Made by a program: the position numbers and the translations under genes. Below the pieces are notes generated by a model. The model made no database searches, was not told the DNA's origin, and saw only the letters and a program-made list of their open reading frames with translations. DNA of 64,000 nt from an uncultured Candidatus Saccharibacteria bacterium. GTDB lineage: Bacteria > Patescibacteriota > Minisyncoccia > Phycocordibacterales > DATGWK01. Position 1 is the stretch's first letter. Every line of letters starts with the position of its first letter. Location: the NCBI GenBank assembly GCA_964428845.1, contig CAYRZH010000003.1, positions 25,884 to 89,883 on the forward strand, in the 5' to 3' direction. Below, piece by piece: positions 18,624 to 54,690 of this stretch.

Positions 18624-18734
18624 GGGTCTTGAATAGATGCCTCGTCGAGCACGGATAAATTTTTGCTAAAATTTTCCTCGAGCTCGCGCCGTCGCGCTCG
18701 CTAGTCTCGCCTCGGCATCTATTCAAGACCCCCT
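18624..18734. repeat. Hairpin element copy 1: a roughly 110-nt element with 21-nt terminal inverted arms (gggtcttgaatagatgcctcg ... cgaggcatctattcaagaccc) and a conserved GC-rich core
   Basis: Aligns end to end with copies at 26265-26373 and 54584-54690. The arms are reverse complements of each other. Confidence 0.8.
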
Positions 18735-18883
18735 ATGTATAAATCTTCTTGCGGACTCCCCTCGAGTGATCTCTGTGGCGGACAGGCAGGCCGGTAAGGC
18801 AGAGTATTCAAGTATTCAAAATCCATTGGGCAAACCTCGACAAGATGGGCTCCAAAAAAACATCTTGGACAATTGCAGAAACG

Positions 18884-18912
18884 AAAAACCCCCCAGAAAA
18901 ACCTGGGGGGCT
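18884..18912 (-). terminator. Rho-independent terminator downstream of the island-1 gene
   Basis: Minus strand: ccccccagg ttttt ctgggggg followed by TTTTT. Confidence 0.7.
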
Positions 18913-18941: not shown

Positions 18942-19649
18942 CTAGGTGGCTTGAGGGACGGCAACTGGTGTATGAGAACCGACTTGCGACACAGCGAACG
19001 CGAACCCGCGGTCACGAAGCCTCCCGCCGCCAGGCCTGCCGCTGCACGCGTTGAGCCAGCGACCACCGCCGACACGGTCCGCGCAGAGCAAGCGCGGATC
19101 GCCGACGGAGTCGTTGATGGGTTCGTGCATGGCAACGATGTACCACAGACCCATCGCTTCGATCTCCTTGTCCGTGAACTTCTCACGGATGAGGCAGGCC
19201 AGTTCGGCGTTCGGCTTCGAGAGCTTGCGTCTGTCGGCCTCGGCGCGGATCTTCTTCGTGGTCCGGTCGTTGTCCTCGAAGAGCATGCCCTTGAGAACGG
19301 CGACTTCGGTCGTCACGCCGCTCGTCGGCTTGAAGTCAGGGCTTCGGAGCACCTGCTTGGCGTAGTCACCCACACGGAGGCCTCTGCTTTTGAGTCGAGT
19401 GATCCAGGCTTTACCGGTCGTGCCGTCGCTCGTAACCCAGAAGTAGATGACGCCGCCTTCCTCGTGCCAACGCTTGGGGGGGTTGGAGAGCGGGAACGGA
19501 CCACGAATCGCGTCGGCAATTCTCACCTGCTCTACCACAGATGCGCCTCGAAATCTCTGCAGATCCGCTCGAGTGACACCCCTGACATCCAAGATCTCCA
19601 ATGTGGCCATGGCTTCCGAAATAGGTATTTCACTGACAAGGCTCCCCAT
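18942..19649 (-). CDS. High-GC island gene 1: hypothetical protein of an unrecognised family (paralog of 50662-51318 and 26555-27223)
   Basis: About 63% GC against an approximately 40% host. Strong SD (GGAAGGAGAcccaaATG). Shares a 331-bp identical block with 50803-51133. C-terminal motif AMHEPINDS...GGGRWL..C.GRP shared with the two other island genes. Confidence 0.7.
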   Translation of the reverse strand: MGSLVSEIPISEAMATLEILDVRGVTRADLQRFRGASVVEQVRIADAIRGPFPLSNPPKRWHEEGGVIYFWVTSDGTTGKAWITRLKSRGLRVGDYAKQVLRSPDFKPTSGVTTEVAVLKGMLFEDNDRTTKKIRAEADRRKLSKPNAELACLIREKFTDKEIEAMGLWYIVAMHEPINDSVGDPRLLCADRVGGGRWLNACSGRPGGGRLRDRGFAFAVSQVGSHTPVAVPQAT

Positions 19650-19764: not shown

Positions 19765-19793
19765 ATTCTACGTCTCCAATAGCTAAACGTCAA
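19765..19793 (-). promoter_or_regulatory. Near-consensus sigma-70 promoter for island gene 1 (TTGACG-N17-TAGAAT)
   Basis: Reverse complement reads ttgacg tttagctattggagacg tagaat. Confidence 0.55.
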
Positions 19794-25043: not shown

Positions 25044-25985
25044 TTATTTCTTAAGCAAGATATTGATAGCTTTTGTAACAATAGGAAGGATATCGTTGTA
25101 GAAGTTCAGATCAAGGATATCAGCCAATTTGAACCATTTGGCGTCATCGAGACCGCCGTTTCCCTCTTCGAGCTTCAGATCTTTAAACTTCGCTTCGGCA
25201 AGAAAATATACAACCTGTTTTTTCTTTTTGCCATTTTCGGGATGATAGGCAATGTATTCGTTTTCGCCCAGTTTCTCCTTGGGGACTACATCTACGCCTA
25301 TCTCTTCTTTGGCTTTTCTTACAATACCATCAGCATACTCTTCTTCTGGGCCAATTTTCCCTTTGGTAAGGGTCCAGTGGCCGAAGACATCGTGGACAAG
25401 TGCAAGATAGATATCTCCCTTGTGGTGGGAGTAAACTACGGCACCACAGAGTTTTTCTACCGGGATCTTGTCTGCGGGGATATCTTTATTTGGCTTTTTT
25501 TTTGAGGTTTCGTTTTTGCCCGGCTCCCCCATTTCTTTGTACACCGCCCCCAAAACCCCGTTTACAAATTTGCTGCTAGTGTCACCGCCAAATGTTTTGG
25601 CTAGTTCGATAGCTTCGTTGATGGCGACTTTTGGTGGTACCTCGTCTCGATTGCCAAAGATGAGCTCGTAGAGGCCAATTCTTAAAATGTTTCTATCGAC
25701 GACAGATATTTTCTCAAGTGGCCAGTCTGGTGCTGCCTTTACGATTATGTTATCGAGATCTTTTTCTTTCTTGAGCACATTTTTCATAAGTGACTCCATA
25801 AACGAAAAATCTCCTATACCAGGAGCAAATTCTTCTGCATTTCTACGGAAAATTTCCATGGCCTCCTTCTCACTCTTTTTTCCAAAGTCTACTTCAAAGA
25901 GTGACTGCACGACTATTGATCTCGATAGGTGTCTGTTTGCCATATTCTCTATTTGCAAGAACTGTTCACCTTTACTATAACCCAA
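25044..25985 (-). CDS. nusB: Fusion protein: NusB antitermination factor (N-terminal) plus NUDIX hydrolase (C-terminal)
   Basis: N-terminal half resembles NusB (LFEVDF..., VDRNILRIGLYELIF). C-terminal half carries a Nudix box GKIGPEEEYADGIVRKAKEEIGV. Confidence 0.7.
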   Translation of the reverse strand: MGYSKGEQFLQIENMANRHLSRSIVVQSLFEVDFGKKSEKEAMEIFRRNAEEFAPGIGDFSFMESLMKNVLKKEKDLDNIIVKAAPDWPLEKISVVDRNILRIGLYELIFGNRDEVPPKVAINEAIELAKTFGGDTSSKFVNGVLGAVYKEMGEPGKNETSKKKPNKDIPADKIPVEKLCGAVVYSHHKGDIYLALVHDVFGHWTLTKGKIGPEEEYADGIVRKAKEEIGVDVVPKEKLGENEYIAYHPENGKKKKQVVYFLAEAKFKDLKLEEGNGGLDDAKWFKLADILDLNFYNDILPIVTKAINILLKK

Positions 25986-26264: not shown

Positions 26265-26373
26265 GGGTTTTGAATAGCATACCTCGTCGAGCACGGATAA
26301 ATTTCTGCTGAAATTTTCCTCGAGCTCGCGCCGTCGCGCTCGCTAGTCTCGCCTCGGCATCTATTCAAAACCC
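26265..26373. repeat. Hairpin element copy 2
   Basis: Full-length alignment to copy 1. The core ctcgtcgagcacggataaattt.tgct.aaattttcctcgagctcgcgccgtcgcgctcgctagtctcgcctcgg is identical except for 2 nt. Lies immediately upstream of the rpmF promoter. Confidence 0.8.
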
Positions 26374-26483
26374 TGATAGATACGCAAATCTTCCTGCGCA
26401 GTCTCCTCGTGCAATCTCCAAGCCAGACACCAGACGCCATCTCGCTCCGGAACCTATTAAAGATCGCAAAGATTGACTTACCT

Positions 26484-26554: not shown

Positions 26555-27223
26555 CTACTTACGACGGACAAACACCAAGCGGTGGCCAGGACCCCAGACG
26601 CTGAGAGGGCGGCCGTCGCAAGTACGGAGCCACCGCCCACCACAGACGTCGCATCCGACAGAGAACACGTCGAGGTCGCTGTACGAGTCCCAAATGGGAT
26701 GCATCGCGATAGCGACACACTCGTCGTTGGGTTGGTCGATGTACTGCAAGCGCAGTTGCGGACCGGCTTCTGCTGGACAGAGACCAAGTCCGAGCTTGTC
26801 GGCCTCGGCACAGATGTTATAGAAGGCCGTACTGTGCTTGAAGCCGAGTTCAGCTACTGTAACAAGCACGAGGTCGAGTTCTATCGGCTCCTTGCTCACG
26901 ATAAACTCGGGCTTGTCGAGGATGTCGCCCGCCGCCAGGTCGTCGATTTTCATTTTCGCGGACTTGATGGCCCTTCGGAAACCCGCGCCATCCTTGATGC
27001 CGGTGCCGAGCTTGATGGTTTTCCATGTCGACCAGGCCCTAATAGGCTCGGCTCTTGCCCTGCCACCATTGCGGAGAAACTCCGTGAACCGAACCCCCGC
27101 ATTGTGCGGACTGTCGATCAGTGCCTGGACGCCACTTGGGCTAAGCACTTCCCAGTTGGTGTTTGCCCCCAACTTGGCAAGCAACTCGAATCTCTGCTCG
27201 ACGCAGATTGTCTTGGCAGCCAT
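26555..27223 (-). CDS. High-GC island gene 2: hypothetical protein, a divergent paralog of island genes 1 and 3
   Basis: High GC. SD AAAGGAGGtagccaATG. Shared blocks with the island-1/3 proteins: GTGIKDGAG vs DGTTGKAW, ICAEADKLGL vs IRAEADRRKL, AIAMHPIWDS vs IVAMHEPINDS, CGGRWLRTCDGRP vs GGGRWLNACSGRP. Confidence 0.6.
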   Translation of the reverse strand: MAAKTICVEQRFELLAKLGANTNWEVLSPSGVQALIDSPHNAGVRFTEFLRNGGRARAEPIRAWSTWKTIKLGTGIKDGAGFRRAIKSAKMKIDDLAAGDILDKPEFIVSKEPIELDLVLVTVAELGFKHSTAFYNICAEADKLGLGLCPAEAGPQLRLQYIDQPNDECVAIAMHPIWDSYSDLDVFSVGCDVCGGRWLRTCDGRPLSVWGPGHRLVFVRRK

Positions 27224-49433: not shown

Positions 49434-50445
49434 CATGGCAAAATTTGATTTTTTGGCTCTCGGAGATATCACCACCGACGCATTTATCCGGCTCAAGGAC
49501 GCCTCGGTCCACTGCAATCTAGATCGCGAAAAGTGCGAACTCTGCCTGCGATTTGCTGATAAAGTTCCTTATGAATTTGTTGAGATCATCCGTGCTGTGG
49601 GCAACAGTGCCAATGCGGCCGTAAGCGCCGCCCGCCTAGGTCTCAAATCCGCATTTATGACAAATCTCGGCGCGGATCAAAACGGTCGTGAATGCTTGGC
49701 AGAACTCAAAAAAAATGGAGTTTCGACAAAACTTGTCACCATCCACCGGAAAAAAGAAACAAATTATCACTATGTTTTATGGTTTGAAGATGAGCGAACG
49801 ATTTTAATAAAACACCAGCAGTATGAATACAAGTTTGTAGCGCCAGCGCGAGCACCAGGTTGGCTTTACTTGAGCTCACTTGCCGAAAATTCTCTCCCCT
49901 ATCATCTGGAGATAATTGAATACCTTAAGAAACATCCGGAAACAAAGCTGGCGTTTCAGCCTGGGACATTTCAGATGAGGCTTGGGCGAGAAAAACTTTC
50001 TGATTTATATAAGCTATCTCACGTTTTTATTTGCAACACAGACGAAGCAAAAAGGGTTTTGGAAATTTCGGAAGAGACAACGGGAAATGAGATCGATATT
50101 CCAGAGCTTCCTAAAAAAATACACGCGCTCGGGCCAAAAATTGCTGTGATCACCGACGGTCCAAAAGGGGCGTATGTCTTTGACGGGACAACTACTTGGT
50201 TTATGCCGCCGTATCCAGATCCGAAGCCACCGTACGAGCGCACTGGCGCAGGCGATGCTTTCGCGTCTACTTTTGTTTCTGCCCTAGCGCTCGGCAAAAG
50301 TATCGAGGAAGCACTTATGTGGGCACCGATAAACTCAATGTCAGTGGTGCAAGATATAGGGGCACAAAGAGGACTCTTGAAACGCGAGAAACTTGAGGAG
50401 TATTTAAAACAAGCGCCGGGGGATTATAAGCCGAGGAGGATTTAA
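49434..50445 (+). CDS. PfkB-family carbohydrate/nucleoside kinase (ribokinase-like). Start chosen at MAKFDFLALGD; the track's 49333 start overlaps fba.
   Basis: N-terminal GD..D glycine motif and a C-terminal TGAGDAF anion-hole motif. Confidence 0.75.
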
Positions 50446-50454
50446 ATATTTATC

Positions 50455-50492
50455 AAAAGAAAAAAGCCCCGCAACCACGCGAGGCCTCCATG
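50455..50492 (-). terminator. Repeat A: terminator-like 38-mer (aaaagaaaaaagccccgcaaccacgcgaggcctccatg), repeated at 51897-51935
   Basis: Minus-strand reading gives an imperfect GC stem followed by T6. A second, 37-bp copy lies at 51897-51935, with a 1-nt indel and a few substitutions. Confidence 0.5.
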
Positions 50493-50585
50493 TTTACGTC
50501 TGGAATACGTTGCGACAATTTGCCGCGAGCAAAGGTCTAAAGTCAAAGGGTTCTACTGCCGATATAGGTATAACTGGTTTTATAT

Positions 50586-50625
50586 AAAAAATTCAGCCCT
50601 GCTCCGACGGATCGGAACAGGGCTA
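50586..50625 (-). terminator. Rho-independent terminator of island gene 3
   Basis: agccctg...cagggct stem and T-run on the minus strand. Confidence 0.65.
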
Positions 50626-50661
50626 AGGGCTAAGGCCAAAGGGACTGAAGTCCCGAGGGTC

Positions 50662-51318
50662 TTAGGATTGAGAACCAACTTGCGGGACAACGAACGCGAA
50701 CCCCCCACCACCATCCCACCTGCGGTCAGGCCCGCCGCCGCGCGCGCGGAGCCAGTCACCACCGTCGCACCGGTCCACGGAGAGCAAGCCCGGAACACCA
50801 CAGGAGTCGTTGATGGGTTCGTGCATGGCAACGATGTACCACAGACCCATCGCTTCGATCTCCTTGTCCGTGAACTTCTCACGGATGAGGCAGGCCAGTT
50901 CGGCGTTCGGCTTCGAGAGCTTGCGTCTGTCGGCCTCGGCGCGGATCTTCTTCGTGGTCCGGTCGTTGTCCTCGAAGAGCATGCCCTTGAGAACGGCGAC
51001 TTCGGTCGTCACGCCGCTCGTCGGCTTGAAGTCAGGGCTTCGGAGCACCTGCTTGGCGTAGTCACCCACACGGAGGCCTCTGCTTTTGAGTCGAGTGATC
51101 CAGGCTTTACCGGTCGTGCCGTCGCTCGTAACCGAGAAGTAGATGACGCCGCCTTCTTCGCGCCACGAACGGGTCGGCTTTGAAACAACCCATTCACCCG
51201 AATTGACGAGTCTGATCGCTTCATTCGGGTCGGTCGAGCCGGTCTGACGCATGATGTTCTTCACCAGTGCGTTCAGCTTGCCGGGTAGCACGTCTGCGAT
51301 TGCGAATTTTGTGCTCAT
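50662..51318 (-). CDS. High-GC island gene 3: hypothetical protein, a close paralog of island gene 1
   Basis: The 331-bp block 50803-51133 is identical to 19108-19438 by manual comparison. SD AAGGAGatacaatcATG. The protein shares EEGGVIYF...GLWYIVAMHEPINDS with island gene 1. Confidence 0.7.
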   Translation of the reverse strand: MSTKFAIADVLPGKLNALVKNIMRQTGSTDPNEAIRLVNSGEWVVSKPTRSWREEGGVIYFSVTSDGTTGKAWITRLKSRGLRVGDYAKQVLRSPDFKPTSGVTTEVAVLKGMLFEDNDRTTKKIRAEADRRKLSKPNAELACLIREKFTDKEIEAMGLWYIVAMHEPINDSCGVPGLLSVDRCDGGDWLRARGGGPDRRWDGGGGFAFVVPQVGSQS

Positions 51319-51470
51319 GATTGTATCTCCTTGGGCTAATTTGCCCGTTTCGTTTTCCTCTAATCCGAGGAGGAACCATGGCCTATGTGGTCATAGCGAG
51401 GAATGGCCTAGTTTTAAGCCACTTTTCGCTATGACCACTTACAAGTAGTTCAATGTTCAGTCTGCGGCTC

Positions 51471-51499
51471 ATTTTACACCCTTTCTTGGTATAAGTCAA
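51471..51499 (-). promoter_or_regulatory. Near-consensus sigma-70 promoter for island gene 3 (TTGACT-N17-TAAAAT)
   Basis: Reverse complement reads ttgact tataccaagaaagggtg taaaat. The 150-nt leader contains the hairpin gtggtcatagcg...cgctatgaccac. Confidence 0.55.
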
Positions 51500-51511: not shown

Positions 51512-51808
51512 TTATGATTTTTTTAGATATCTAACAAGTTTCTTACCAGTAAAAGGACCTATTGATTCACCTCGAGTATATTCTTCTCTTGCCTCTCGTA
51601 TGATTTTTGCTAGGTATGGAGTTGGCACTAGCTCGTTAGCAGATAGTACTAGTTTCTTCTCCCGAACAAATTGCTTCAGGAAAGCATTGATCGCGGTGCT
51701 CAATGGTACACCAAGCTCTTCGGCTGTTTCCTTGGCCGCCTTTTTTAAATCCTTCTCCGTTTTTATATTTAATATTGTTTTGGTATTCATATACCAAAGT
51801 ATATACAA
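51512..51808 (-). CDS. Ribbon-helix-helix RelB/DinJ-family antitoxin-like protein, with no RelE-like toxin partner adjacent
   Basis: Length and the TAINAFLKQFVREKKLVL pattern match DinJ/RelB antitoxins. The downstream gene on the same strand is island gene 3. Confidence 0.55.
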   Translation of the reverse strand: MYILWYMNTKTILNIKTEKDLKKAAKETAEELGVPLSTAINAFLKQFVREKKLVLSANELVPTPYLAKIIREAREEYTRGESIGPFTGKKLVRYLKKS

Positions 51809-51838
51809 TGGTATATTTAAGTCAATACTGCCTTACTT

Positions 51839-51881
51839 CCTCCCCACCACCTTCAAAACAGCTTTCTTTATAACTTCTACT
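51839..51881. repeat. Repeat B: a 43-bp duplicate of the 3' coding end of the transketolase C-subunit gene (true copy at 53603-53645)
   Basis: tccccaccaccttcaaaacagct(t/c)tctttata(a/g)cttctactc. The minus-strand translation ...VEVIKKAVLKVVGRK* mirrors the tkt C-terminus ...VEAIKRAVLKVVGRK*. Confidence 0.8.
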
Positions 51882-51936
51882 CTCTCGAAAAAAATTGAAA
51901 AGAAAAAGCCCCGCACCGCGCGAGGCCTCCATGCTA

Positions 51937-52650
51937 TCAACTCAACGATTCGCTTAGACCTACCCCCATCTCGCTGTAGAACTCATCAAGAGGAGCTTTG
52001 ATCAATCCTAGTTGCTTGAGGGTAAAGTATTTCCCCTTTAGTGTCTCGACTTCTCTTTTCACCTGCCCCTCATCCAGAGTCTCGCCCTCGCCCAGCTCAC
52101 CTTTCAACTGCAGGATTTTGACGACTTGCTGAGCCATAATCTCATTCGCAATACCCTCTAGCTCGGCAAGGTTTAGCCCACAGAGATCTTTCAGATCAGT
52201 GACACCTGTTTCCCTGATAAAGTCCGATAAACAAACTCGGAATAGGTAGAACTTCGGAGATATGAGGTTGGTTAGAAACCTCCCAACCGCAGAGAGGACC
52301 ATTCCAAAAACACAGAGAACAAGGCCGATTTCTATGGCGATCGATATCCACATAGACACGACGGCCTGACACAGAGCCAATAAGGTATTGGGGGTTATGA
52401 AGACAGTGCTCAACAGAAGGGTAAGAAAACAAAACCCCACTAATAGGGCCAGAGCCAGTATAAGATACAGATAGCCCCACATCACACCCTCGATGAACCG
52501 TATCGCCCTCGCGACTCTTAGAAAATCCTTTCCAGTTCTTTCTCTCCATAGGTTGAGAATAGCTTCTGGAATTTGCTTTCTCTTTACGACCACCACCCAA
52601 TCCTTCGTACTCCAGCCATGGATACTATTCAGTTTACGGACAGTGCTCAT
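51937..52650 (-). CDS. Hypothetical integral membrane protein (3 TM plus a C-terminal coiled/acidic cytoplasmic domain). Start chosen at MSTVRKLNS, which has an SD ACAGGAGAcagagaATG.
   Basis: TM segments (WGYLYLILALALLVGFCFLTLLL, LLALCQAVVSMWISIAIEIGLVLCVFGMVL). The track ORF extends to 52761, but the promoter at 52752-52785 argues for the shorter start. Confidence 0.45.
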   Translation of the reverse strand: MSTVRKLNSIHGWSTKDWVVVVKRKQIPEAILNLWRERTGKDFLRVARAIRFIEGVMWGYLYLILALALLVGFCFLTLLLSTVFITPNTLLALCQAVVSMWISIAIEIGLVLCVFGMVLSAVGRFLTNLISPKFYLFRVCLSDFIRETGVTDLKDLCGLNLAELEGIANEIMAQQVVKILQLKGELGEGETLDEGQVKREVETLKGKYFTLKQLGLIKAPLDEFYSEMGVGLSESLS

Positions 52651-52751
52651 TCTCTGTCTCCTGTGTTTTATTAGAAAATGGCCCTGTTTCGCACATTTTC
52701 TACCAGTTATCGATTCTTTTTGCCCGCTACCAAAGAACATCTTCCCGCGAG

Positions 52752-52785
52752 AACAATACAACTTTTTAGTACTGAGTCAATCACG
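52752..52785 (-). promoter_or_regulatory. Sigma-70-like promoter (TTGACT-N16-TATTGT)
   Basis: Reverse complement reads ttgact cagtactaaaaagttg tattgt. Confidence 0.45.
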
Positions 52786-52860: not shown

Positions 52861-53397
52861 TCAACTTGCGAGAACCGGAGTGGGGGCAGAGGCGGTCCAC
52901 TGTCCTTCCGTGCGACCTTCTAGATAAGCCTGATCGCAGAAAGGATCCCAATGCTCATCCCAGGAGAGACGGAGAACGAACTCCCCAATGCCATCCTGGA
53001 AGATGGTACCCCAGAAGCAGAGATCGGTCCTTTTCCCAAGACGATCTCTCTTCCATCTTGCGGGAATGAGTTTGGGGTTCTGCTTCAGAACAGAGAGGAC
53101 CGTGGCAGGCAAAGCCTTACCCCTGATCTGGAAACGGAACTTGGAACCAGGGACCGCCTTACCCGCCAACTGGTCGGGAGAGAGGAAGAGTTCGATCTTC
53201 TCACCGTTGGCAAAAAGATCGTCTCCCACACGGGTGAGCTTGAGCTCTCCCATGTCAGTGTGCTGCTTGATCGACCAGCCGTCTTCGAGCTGTGCCGGAT
53301 CGAGGTGACGTGGAACGTCGAACTCGGTCGGCAGTCCAACGTCGAGCCCCAGCTCATTGTTATTGCCAGCCATTTGAGTCTCCTTTCTGGTTTGCAA
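52861..53397 (-). CDS. High-GC hypothetical protein (178 aa), unrelated in sequence to island genes 1-3
   Basis: High GC against the local background. Minus-strand ORF with a strong terminator. No recognisable domain. Confidence 0.45.
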   Translation of the reverse strand: MQTRKETQMAGNNNELGLDVGLPTEFDVPRHLDPAQLEDGWSIKQHTDMGELKLTRVGDDLFANGEKIELFLSPDQLAGKAVPGSKFRFQIRGKALPATVLSVLKQNPKLIPARWKRDRLGKRTDLCFWGTIFQDGIGEFVLRLSWDEHWDPFCDQAYLEGRTEGQWTASAPTPVLAS

Positions 53398-53595: not shown

Positions 53596-54573
53596 CTATT
53601 TTCTCCCCACCACCTTCAAAACAGCTCTCTTTATAGCTTCTACTCCCATGCCGTAATGCTCGATGAGCTCGTCTGGCTTGCCTGATTGACCAAACTCGTC
53701 TTTTACGCCGAGAAATTCTATTGGTACTGGAAAATTTGAGGCTAGGCATTCTGCAACGGCGCTACCCATTCCACCCGCGATCTGATGTTCCTCTAGGGTC
53801 ACTATTGCGCCAGTTTCTTTGGCCGCATCTACAATAGCTTTCTCGTCGAGCGGTTTTATGGTTGCCAGATTTATAACATTCACATTTGTGCCAGCGGTTT
53901 CAAGATCGTGCGCCGCCTGCATGGCTCGGTAGACAAGCGCGCCGGTTGCGATGATTGTGGCGACCGGCGTATTCTTCGGTTCAAAAAATGTTGCCGCCTT
54001 CCCTATTTCAAAAGGAGTATCTTCGGTTGTGATAACTGGAGTCTTTTCTCGTCCAAGACGAATGTAAACCGGAGTATCTGTCTTTGCGGCCGCGATCGTA
54101 GCTTTGCGCGCTTCGATGGCGTCGCAGGGTGAGATCACCACCATACGCGGGATGACTCGCATGATAGCAATGTCCTCGATCGCTTGATGTGTGCCGCCGT
54201 CGGGCCCTACAGAAATACCCGCATGCGACCCGATGATCTTCACAGGACGATCGTTGTAGCAAATAGTGGTCCGGATTTGTTCCCAGTTTCTTCCTGGAGA
54301 AAACATAGCGTAAGAAGTAATGAAAGGAATTTTGCCCATGGCCGCCATACCGGAGCCAACTCCAGCAAGATTTTGCTCGGCAACTCCGATCTGCACAAAT
54401 CTTTCCGGAAATTTTTTGGCAAAAAGGTGGGCTTGGGCAGACTCTGTAAGGTCGGCACAGAGAGCTACCACTCGCGAGTCGGCTTCACCAGCAGCTAAAA
54501 GCCCTTCGCCATATCCTTTTCGGATCGGCACCTGCTCGATGTCAGCGGAAAAAAGTTTGGGGTTCAGGTTCAT
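53596..54573 (-). CDS. tkt: Transketolase C-terminal section (pyrimidine-binding and C-terminal domains) of a split transketolase
   Basis: 325 aa matching the transketolase C-half (GVAEQNLAGVGSGMAAMG, GPDGGTHQAIEDIAIMR). Confidence 0.85.
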   Translation of the reverse strand: MNLNPKLFSADIEQVPIRKGYGEGLLAAGEADSRVVALCADLTESAQAHLFAKKFPERFVQIGVAEQNLAGVGSGMAAMGKIPFITSYAMFSPGRNWEQIRTTICYNDRPVKIIGSHAGISVGPDGGTHQAIEDIAIMRVIPRMVVISPCDAIEARKATIAAAKTDTPVYIRLGREKTPVITTEDTPFEIGKAATFFEPKNTPVATIIATGALVYRAMQAAHDLETAGTNVNVINLATIKPLDEKAIVDAAKETGAIVTLEEHQIAGGMGSAVAECLASNFPVPIEFLGVKDEFGQSGKPDELIEHYGMGVEAIKRAVLKVVGRK

Positions 54574-54583
54574 TATGGATATG

Positions 54584-54690
54584 GAGTTTAAATAAATACC
54601 TCGTCTCGCACGATAAAATTCTCGCTGAAATTTTCCTCGTGCTCGCGCCGTCGCGCTCGCAAGGCTTCACCTCGGTACTTATTTAAACTC
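54584..54690. repeat. Hairpin element copy 3
   Basis: Arms ggagtttaaataaatacctcg / cgaggtacttatttaaactcc pair perfectly. They differ from copies 1 and 2 at several positions on both arms simultaneously. Core ...aaattttcctcg.gctcgcgccgtcgcgctcgc is conserved. Lies 11 nt upstream of the tkt C-section ATG. Confidence 0.75.

Follow-up and report, generated by a model that had tools for sequence, protein, structure and literature searches.

Diversity-generating retroelements (DGRs) of the candidate phyla radiation (CPR) include a clade restricted to Patescibacteria (PMC8144416); they are reported mostly to have one target each (Wu et al. 2018, PMC5758913), and their target genes are largely unclassified (PMC5758913). 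Also documented for DGRs are non-adjacent or remote targets, the supply of avd, template repeat (TR) and reverse transcriptase (RT) in trans, frequent inactivation, atypical GC content and horizontal transfer (PMC5758913). In Thiohalocapsa PB-PSB1, C-type lectin (CLec) C-termini bearing a variable region (VR) have been duplicated within the genome and joined by recombination to different N-terminal domains, with redundant DGR parts decaying, a course of events that has been proposed to be general (Dore et al. 2024, PMC10907252). We analysed a 64,000-nt stretch of DNA (hereafter the window; positions 25,884 to 89,883 of contig CAYRZH010000003.1, assembly GCA_964428845.1) from an uncultured Candidatus Saccharibacteria bacterium, in which two genes 31 kb apart, referred to here as gene 1 and gene 3, share a block of 331 bp without a single difference. 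We consider it likely that the two genes are paralogous DGR targets between which the sequence encoding the protein scaffold was recently and non-reciprocally exchanged.

The identical block spans 19107–19437 in gene 1 and 50803–51133 in gene 3, an offset of 31,696. A first-pass annotation of the window had given the length and perfection of the block and the gene 3 coordinates correctly, but had placed the gene 1 copy one base too high, at 19108–19438; at the corresponding offset of 31,695, the two segments are ~25% identical, i.e. at the random level. Past the perfect block, a single mismatch at 19438 is followed by 22 identical bases, and the shared tract ends at 19460. Comparison of the window with itself by BLASTN, as the annotation had proposed, recovered one strong repeat, 18973–19469 against 50669–51165 (92.6% identity over 497 bp), with no scattered mismatches within the 331 bp. 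The annotation had described both flanks as 70–80% identical. This holds on the C-terminal side, where 100 of 134 positions match (74.6%; 18973–19106); by contrast, 29 of 32 positions match on the N-terminal side (19438–19469), beyond which ungapped identity drops to the random level (10/30). On the same count, we rejected a low-identity homology of the two genes upstream of 19469.

Chance is excluded as the cause of the 331-bp identity: the probability of such a run is 0.75^331 = 4e-42 at the identity of the flank, and 0.91^331 = 3e-14 at the identity of the core to its closest relatives in other genomes. Across the 118 codons shared by gene 1 and gene 3 we observed no synonymous difference and one nonsynonymous difference (W/S, at 19438). 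The closest cores in other genomes differ at 30–37 positions, 15–20 of them of the synonymous class, and synonymous divergence in the gene 1/gene 3 tract is therefore far below that of comparable copies. Protein-level selection is consequently no explanation for the identity; moreover, two independent acquisitions would differ at ~30 sites, indicating that a recent, non-reciprocal event within the genome is required. The absence of synonymous differences thus bears out the annotation's suggestion that paralogs had recently undergone gene conversion, recombination or partial duplication.

Gene 1, gene 3 and a more distant paralog in the window, gene 2, had no match in Pfam or NCBIfam. Gene 3 has >2000 relatives, essentially all of them unnamed Patescibacteria (CPR) proteins of 205–235 aa with 65–83% identity. 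We compared 80 family loci from species-representative genomes. The loci are 88–95% identical in DNA over 1–3 kb across candidate phyla, from ~190 bp upstream of the gene into the downstream sequence. In loci L037, L026, L016 and L010, the 134 nt at the end of the gene recur ~470 nt downstream, and mismatches between the two copies fall at adenines of the downstream copy in 22/24, 15/18, 15/18 and 24/28 cases, respectively, or 76/88 overall; the remainder lie at the extreme 3' end, that of the initiation of mutagenic homing (IMH) sequence. This is the VR/TR relationship that defines a DGR. The repeat is followed by a gene for Avd (Pfam bAvd, E = 6e-10; NCBIfam "diversity-generating retroelement protein Avd", E = 3e-16) and then by one for an RT (RVT_1, E = 2.7e-23), and a TR was found within 3 kb in 29/74 loci. 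Foldseek searches with an AlphaFold model of the gene 3 protein (predicted local distance difference test score 83) matched C-type lectins only, at weak E-values, and the VR lies within this variation-tolerant fold. We conclude that in other CPR genomes the family is the target gene of a complete DGR, with a 134-nt VR, a TR, Avd and an RT.

Whole cassettes, comprising leader, target, TR, avd and RT, are 88–95% identical in DNA even where the genomes are assigned to separate candidate phyla (among them Uhr-, Wolfe-, Azam- and Nomurabacteria; loci L007–L011, L016, L026, L036, L037, L066 and others). The similarity of these cassettes implies that they were transferred horizontally, and recently, between lineages. 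Phage carriage of the cassette was considered and set aside, with no relative of the family found among IMG/VR viral contigs. The annotation had anticipated a variable, mobile gene family, and GC-rich (0.60–0.61 against 0.448), horizontally spread genes for DGR variable proteins are such a family.

The C-terminal flank of the identical block is a VR of this type in both genes (VR1 in gene 1, VR3 in gene 3). The first gene 1/gene 3 mismatch lies 3 nt inside the 134-nt VR, which is where the perfect block ends. Both VRs have the 3' end CAAGTYGGTTCTCA, like cassette VRs (CAAGTCAGTTC) and unlike TRs (CAAMTCTCTTC); hence, both appear to carry an IMH-like end distinct from the IMH* of a TR. VR1 matches the L037 TR at 98/103 non-adenine sites and at 9/31 adenine sites, and matches the TR lineage represented by L011, L026, L036 and L037 at 93/96 non-adenine sites. 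For VR3, the best match to any sampled TR is ~81–84% at non-adenine sites, with adenine retained at 7/31 TR-adenine sites. When compared with the TRs of homologous cassettes, VR1 therefore has the substitution pattern of a DGR VR, and VR3 does not; VR3 may derive either from an unsampled TR or from drift since loss of its template. At the eight AAC codons of the TR, VR1 encodes R/C/D/V/N/S/G/R and VR3 encodes G/S/D/C/R/G/R/G. The 34 mismatches between VR1 and VR3 are enriched at TR-adenine sites (18/31, against 16/103 elsewhere; Fisher p = 7e-6), indicating that their divergence is not ordinary paralog drift. The annotation had called both ends of the proteins diverged. That is correct for the C-terminus, with the qualification that the divergent part is a DGR VR; the N-termini are instead different, non-homologous modules. 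The DGR nature of the C-terminal flank, the edge of the VR as the boundary of the block, and the non-equivalence of the N-termini had all been missed.

Gene 3 retains the surroundings of a cassette target. The 119–129 nt on its 5' side share 95–99% identity with the corresponding upstream sequence of cassettes from other phyla, and ~85 nt on its 3' side are ~92% identical to the sequence immediately following the target in L002, L037 and L026. A convergent pfkB-kinase gene ends at 50445, beyond the gene 3 terminator, and the TR, avd and RT are therefore missing from their expected place. Searches of the whole window with cassette RT and Avd sequences (tblastn; nothing below E = 0.6) and by blastn revealed no RT, Avd or TR; hence, within these 64 kb no DGR-type RT or Avd is encoded alongside gene 1 or gene 3. 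Gene 3 thus appears to be a resident cassette target that has kept its promoter, leader and terminator and has lost TR-avd-RT. The leader of gene 3 is predicted to be strongly folded (minimum free energy -57.2 kcal/mol, z = -7.6), with compensatory changes in 15/20 predicted pairs (28 loci), and across cassettes of CPR phyla it is 95–99% identical, which is above the conservation of the coding sequence. It matched no Rfam family, and we regard it as a candidate for an undescribed cis-regulatory RNA.

Gene 1 is differently placed. Its flanks did not match the cassette flanks of the family loci, and the DNA encoding its N-terminal module had no match in any of the 80 loci. A word-indexed search for homologs of the gene 1 N-terminus returned nothing, and an exhaustive HMMER search was needed to find the module, at 50–58% identity, at the N-terminus of ~14 cluster representatives (200–230 aa). 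Proteins sharing it differ widely in their C-terminal domains, several of them bearing VR-like tails rich in W/Y/G/R, and a distant relative of the same core is present in one (P0133). This distribution suggests that the ~50-aa module could be an adaptor or docking module common to diversified proteins. Its consensus, MGSLVxEIPxSE…ATLEvLD…GVTR.DL.RFR, occurs in small CPR proteins that include P0121–P0135. Judged from its sequence, gene 1 is chimeric, combining a shuffled N-terminal module with a C-type-lectin-fold core and a C-terminal VR.

These observations are consistent with a model in which genes 1 and 3 would be paralogous targets of a DGR family that spreads horizontally among CPR bacteria. 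In each protein, a short helical module at the N-terminus would be followed by a C-type-lectin-fold scaffold and a C-terminal VR encoded by 134 nt. In intact cassettes, a complex of RT and Avd would copy the downstream TR into adenine-mutagenised cDNA that overwrites the VR. In gene 1, the same scaffold and a VR would have been joined to the shuffled N-terminal module, at a site without cassette flanks. The 331-bp (354-bp) identity would then have been left behind when sequence was recently, and non-reciprocally, exchanged between the two genes. Its VR-side end would lie where templated hypermutation had reduced identity to 75%, or where the VR was overwritten afterwards, and its other end would be the junction with the non-homologous N-terminal module. 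As gene conversion, the event would have laid the tract into older paralogs and stopped where the 75% identity of the VRs removes the homology that recombination needs. We lean towards such conversion between already homologous paralogs over recent partial duplication, giving it about an even chance, because three mismatches cluster in the 32-nt upstream edge as opposed to none in 331 bp, and because the VRs differ at 16 non-adenine sites. The preference is slight, given how short the homologous stretch on the N-terminal side is.

Several points weigh against this interpretation. Conversion and duplication followed by rewriting are not cleanly separable with only 32 nt of N-terminal homology: one flank of the tract, at 74.6% over 134 nt, is itself a DGR VR, and the other, at 29/32, is where homology ends. 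The direction of transfer is poorly marked, since among segment-wise nearest relatives the core is only marginally closer to type-B cassettes (90–91% against 82–90%); the N-terminus of gene 3 is type A, although its core is slightly nearer to cassettes with a type-B N-terminus than to most with a type-A one, and mosaicism runs through the entire family. Of the differences between VR1 and VR3, about half (16/34) fall off adenine sites. VR3, which matches no sampled TR well, may have decayed rather than diversified. With RT, Avd and TR all absent from the 64-kb window, a DGR may no longer act on either VR. Finally, the source is probably a metagenome-assembled genome (MAG), and the true identity of the two copies rests on the assembly; an exact 51-mer and a degenerate peptide pattern were each scanned against a metagenome collection and recovered no strain variants. 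The data show the block, the family's DGR identity, the register of the VRs, their adenine bias, the cassette remnants at gene 3, the shuffling of modules and the absence of synonymous differences; the direction of the exchange, its exact mechanism and any action on either VR by a DGR elsewhere in the genome are matters of inference.

The alternative that survives best, a possible but less probable one, is that there was no conversion: a ~500-bp segment of gene 3, containing scaffold, VR and IMH, would have been duplicated very recently onto an existing N-terminal module, and a trans-acting DGR would then have rewritten one VR. Homology confined to 18973–19469 and abrupt at both ends is as expected from such a duplication, as is the coincidence of its 3' end with the end of the IMH-like sequence. 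VR1 also looks freshly templated (97% identity to a TR lineage at non-adenine sites), and this mechanism has already been proposed for DGR targets (PMC10907252). However, partial duplication needs a VR3 that already differed from the acting TR at 16–19 non-adenine sites, leaves the concentration of mismatches in the upstream edge unexplained, and calls for rewriting by a TR and an RT of which the window contains neither. Retro-duplication of the scaffold by the DGR RT was rejected, because an adenine-mutagenic RT would scatter A-to-N changes and the 331 bp contain none.

Exchange between paralogs, as the annotation had envisaged, is also seen in another CPR genome. In the Paceibacterota MAG Go_SlDig_bin_86, the paralogs L073 and L077 are ~75% identical upstream and switch abruptly to ~100% in mid-gene; the tract is ~500 nt long and includes the VR (3 mismatches), with a 30-nt indel near the IMH. 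The occurrence of this switch in an independent MAG indicates that scaffold exchange apparently recurs in the DGR-target family. Four other paralog sets had ordinary identities of 60–90%. A reading of L073/L077 as an identical core with a diverged VR was rejected after full alignment, the windows of low identity being due to the 30-nt indel.

The L073/L077 tract could alternatively be a recurrent artefact, and the family invites one: cores are ~90% identical even between genomes, and the contig studied here, of 96,776 bp, seems to come from a MAG, in which similar paralogous cores might have been homogenised by bubble-popping during assembly or by polishing with multi-mapped reads. We nevertheless consider an artefact unlikely for genes 1 and 3. 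Both copies are in frame within intact open reading frames (ORFs), have unique flanks and lie on one contig; there is a single internal mismatch, and the edges are biologically sensible, namely the start of the VR and the module junction. An artefact would, in any case, alter the number of differences, which would at most be understated, and not the close kinship of the two DGR-target paralogs. That the identity was instead kept without recent exchange, the sequence as such being under selection (for instance extreme purifying selection on the protein, or an RNA or DNA element embedded in it), is highly improbable: no part of the protein family is better conserved than the core, but about half of the differences that separate this core from those of other genomes are synonymous, as against none between the two copies in the window, and even the truly constrained non-coding leader is no more than 95–99% identical between genomes.

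Table 1. Coordinates of features in the window (position 1 is its first nucleotide).
Feature	Position	Strand	Description
Gene 1	18942..19649	-	235 aa; DGR-type variable protein; from ORF list and translation; family member P0097; GC 0.612
Gene 1 N-terminal module	19500..19649	-	~50 aa (MGSLVSEIPISEAMATLEILDVRGVTRADLQRFR...); unrelated to the N-terminus of gene 3
Shared scaffold tract, gene 1 copy	19107..19460	-	354 bp, one mismatch (19438); residues 64-181, CLec-fold core
VR1, gene 1 variable region	18976..19109	-	134 nt; IMH-like 3' end CAAGTCGGTTCTCA; in register with cassette VR/TR repeats
Gene 1 intrinsic terminator	18887..18912	-	11-pair stem, then T-run
Promoter-like site 5' of gene 1	19765..19793	-	TTGACG, 17 nt, TAGAAT; consensus match only
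Gene 2	26555..27223	-	distant third paralog, ~29-30% identity; same fold family; VR-like tail
Gene 3	50662..51318	-	218 aa; DGR variable protein; apparent resident cassette target without TR-Avd-RT
Shared scaffold tract, gene 3 copy	50803..51156	-	perfect block 50803-51133
VR3, gene 3 variable region	50672..50805	-	differs from all sampled TRs at A and non-A sites
Cassette-type 3' flank of gene 3	50575..50661	-	terminator hairpin 50593-50626; TR, avd and RT absent after it
Structured 5' leader of gene 3	51319..51445	-	three predicted hairpins: 51388-51437, 51357-51373, 51333-51346; absent from gene 1
Gene 3 promoter	51471..51499	-	TTGACT, 17 nt, TAAAAT; aligns with cassette TTGACA/TATGAT

Genes 1, 2 and 3 are single-gene, GC-rich inserts among housekeeping genes (GC 0.58–0.61, compared with 0.448 in the window as a whole). 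Gene 1 is flanked by rpsP-KH-trmD and the gene for RNase R, and has its own promoter-like site and its own terminator (Table 1); gene 2 is situated between rpmF and the gene for RNase HII, and gene 3 adjoins the pfkB kinase gene. Gene 2 is a distant (~30%) CLec-type family member, whose VR-like tail contains …GGRWLRTCDGRP…; no TR for it was found in the window. We also considered whether the GC-rich islands are structured RNAs miscalled as ORFs, and rejected this: an Rfam scan of the window matched tRNA only, reading frame and length are kept in >2000 family members, and about half of the substitutions between genomes are synonymous.

Beside gene 3 there are three ORFs with no Pfam match, at 51600–52001 (+), 51937–52761 (-) and 52861–53397 (-), and two pairs of short repeats (51834–51882 with 53597–53645, and 51898–51933 with 50455–50492). 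A separate structured repeat of ~110–150 nt, flanked by palindromes, is present in three copies that are 80–86% identical (18624–18773, 26265–26418 and 54587–54687), each immediately 5' of a minus-strand gene: rpsP, rpmF and the gene for the C-terminal half of transketolase, respectively. Its predicted fold has a long outer stem and two inner hairpins, and in the third copy the outer stem carries compensatory G-to-A and C-to-U changes. The repeat had no Rfam match and was not found in the 80 family loci; it could be an element resembling a miniature inverted-repeat transposable element, or a shared leader.

Through our analysis, three GC-rich island genes of a CPR genome that had been anonymous can be recognised as components of a hypermutation system, and >2000 unannotated proteins gain a functional label (DGR variable protein, C-type-lectin fold). 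It also illustrates that a sharp edge in the identity of two paralogs can stem from retroelement-templated mutagenesis, and not from a recombination event alone. For annotation, the consequence is that DGR finders centred on the RT will miss RT-less targets such as genes 1 and 3; for CPR biology, the locus is a further instance in which DGR targets have exchanged scaffolds and shuffled N-terminal modules, and the conserved leader RNA may regulate such targets. More speculatively, and with rather low confidence, CPR DGR targets might evolve in two tiers, with scaffolds homogenised by recurrent conversion on swappable N-terminal modules and VRs independently rewritten in trans by a distant or transient cassette; gene 1, next to the S16 operon, would then be a live remote target, and the resident target would be under the control of the covarying, previously undescribed leader RNA.

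It has already been described that the C-termini of DGR targets are duplicated and recombine with new N-termini, and the novelty here is therefore limited to specifics: an unannotated CPR family, a window without an RT, and a conversion edge at the VR. Compared to the DGRs reported in PMC8144416, the variable protein is small (~215 aa), with no model for it in Pfam or NCBIfam; the window lacks TR, Avd and RT alike; avd is on the opposite strand in related cassettes; and the target gene is preceded by a conserved structured leader RNA. As in Thiohalocapsa PB-PSB1, there are paralogous targets with a highly identical CLec, VR-proximal region, shuffled N-termini and loss of redundant DGR components. 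Here, by contrast, a CPR bacterium is the host, protein size is much smaller, the neighbourhood contains no transposase and the exchanged tract excludes the VR. The locus resembles the remote targets of Treponema and Legionella (Wu et al. 2018, PMC5758913) in having VR-bearing genes far from any RT, and in that nearly all departures of VR1 from a TR lineage are at adenines, the criterion by which non-adjacent targets are called; by contrast with those targets, VR1 was compared with foreign TRs, and gene 1 is only a candidate for an active remote target. Lastly, a short perfect tract in diverged paralogs, non-reciprocal and ending where identity collapses, would be a feature in common with interlocus gene conversion in bacterial variable and antigenic gene families. 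The difference is that one of the bounding divergences would here have arisen by retroelement-templated hypermutation, rather than by drift or from silent-cassette donors.
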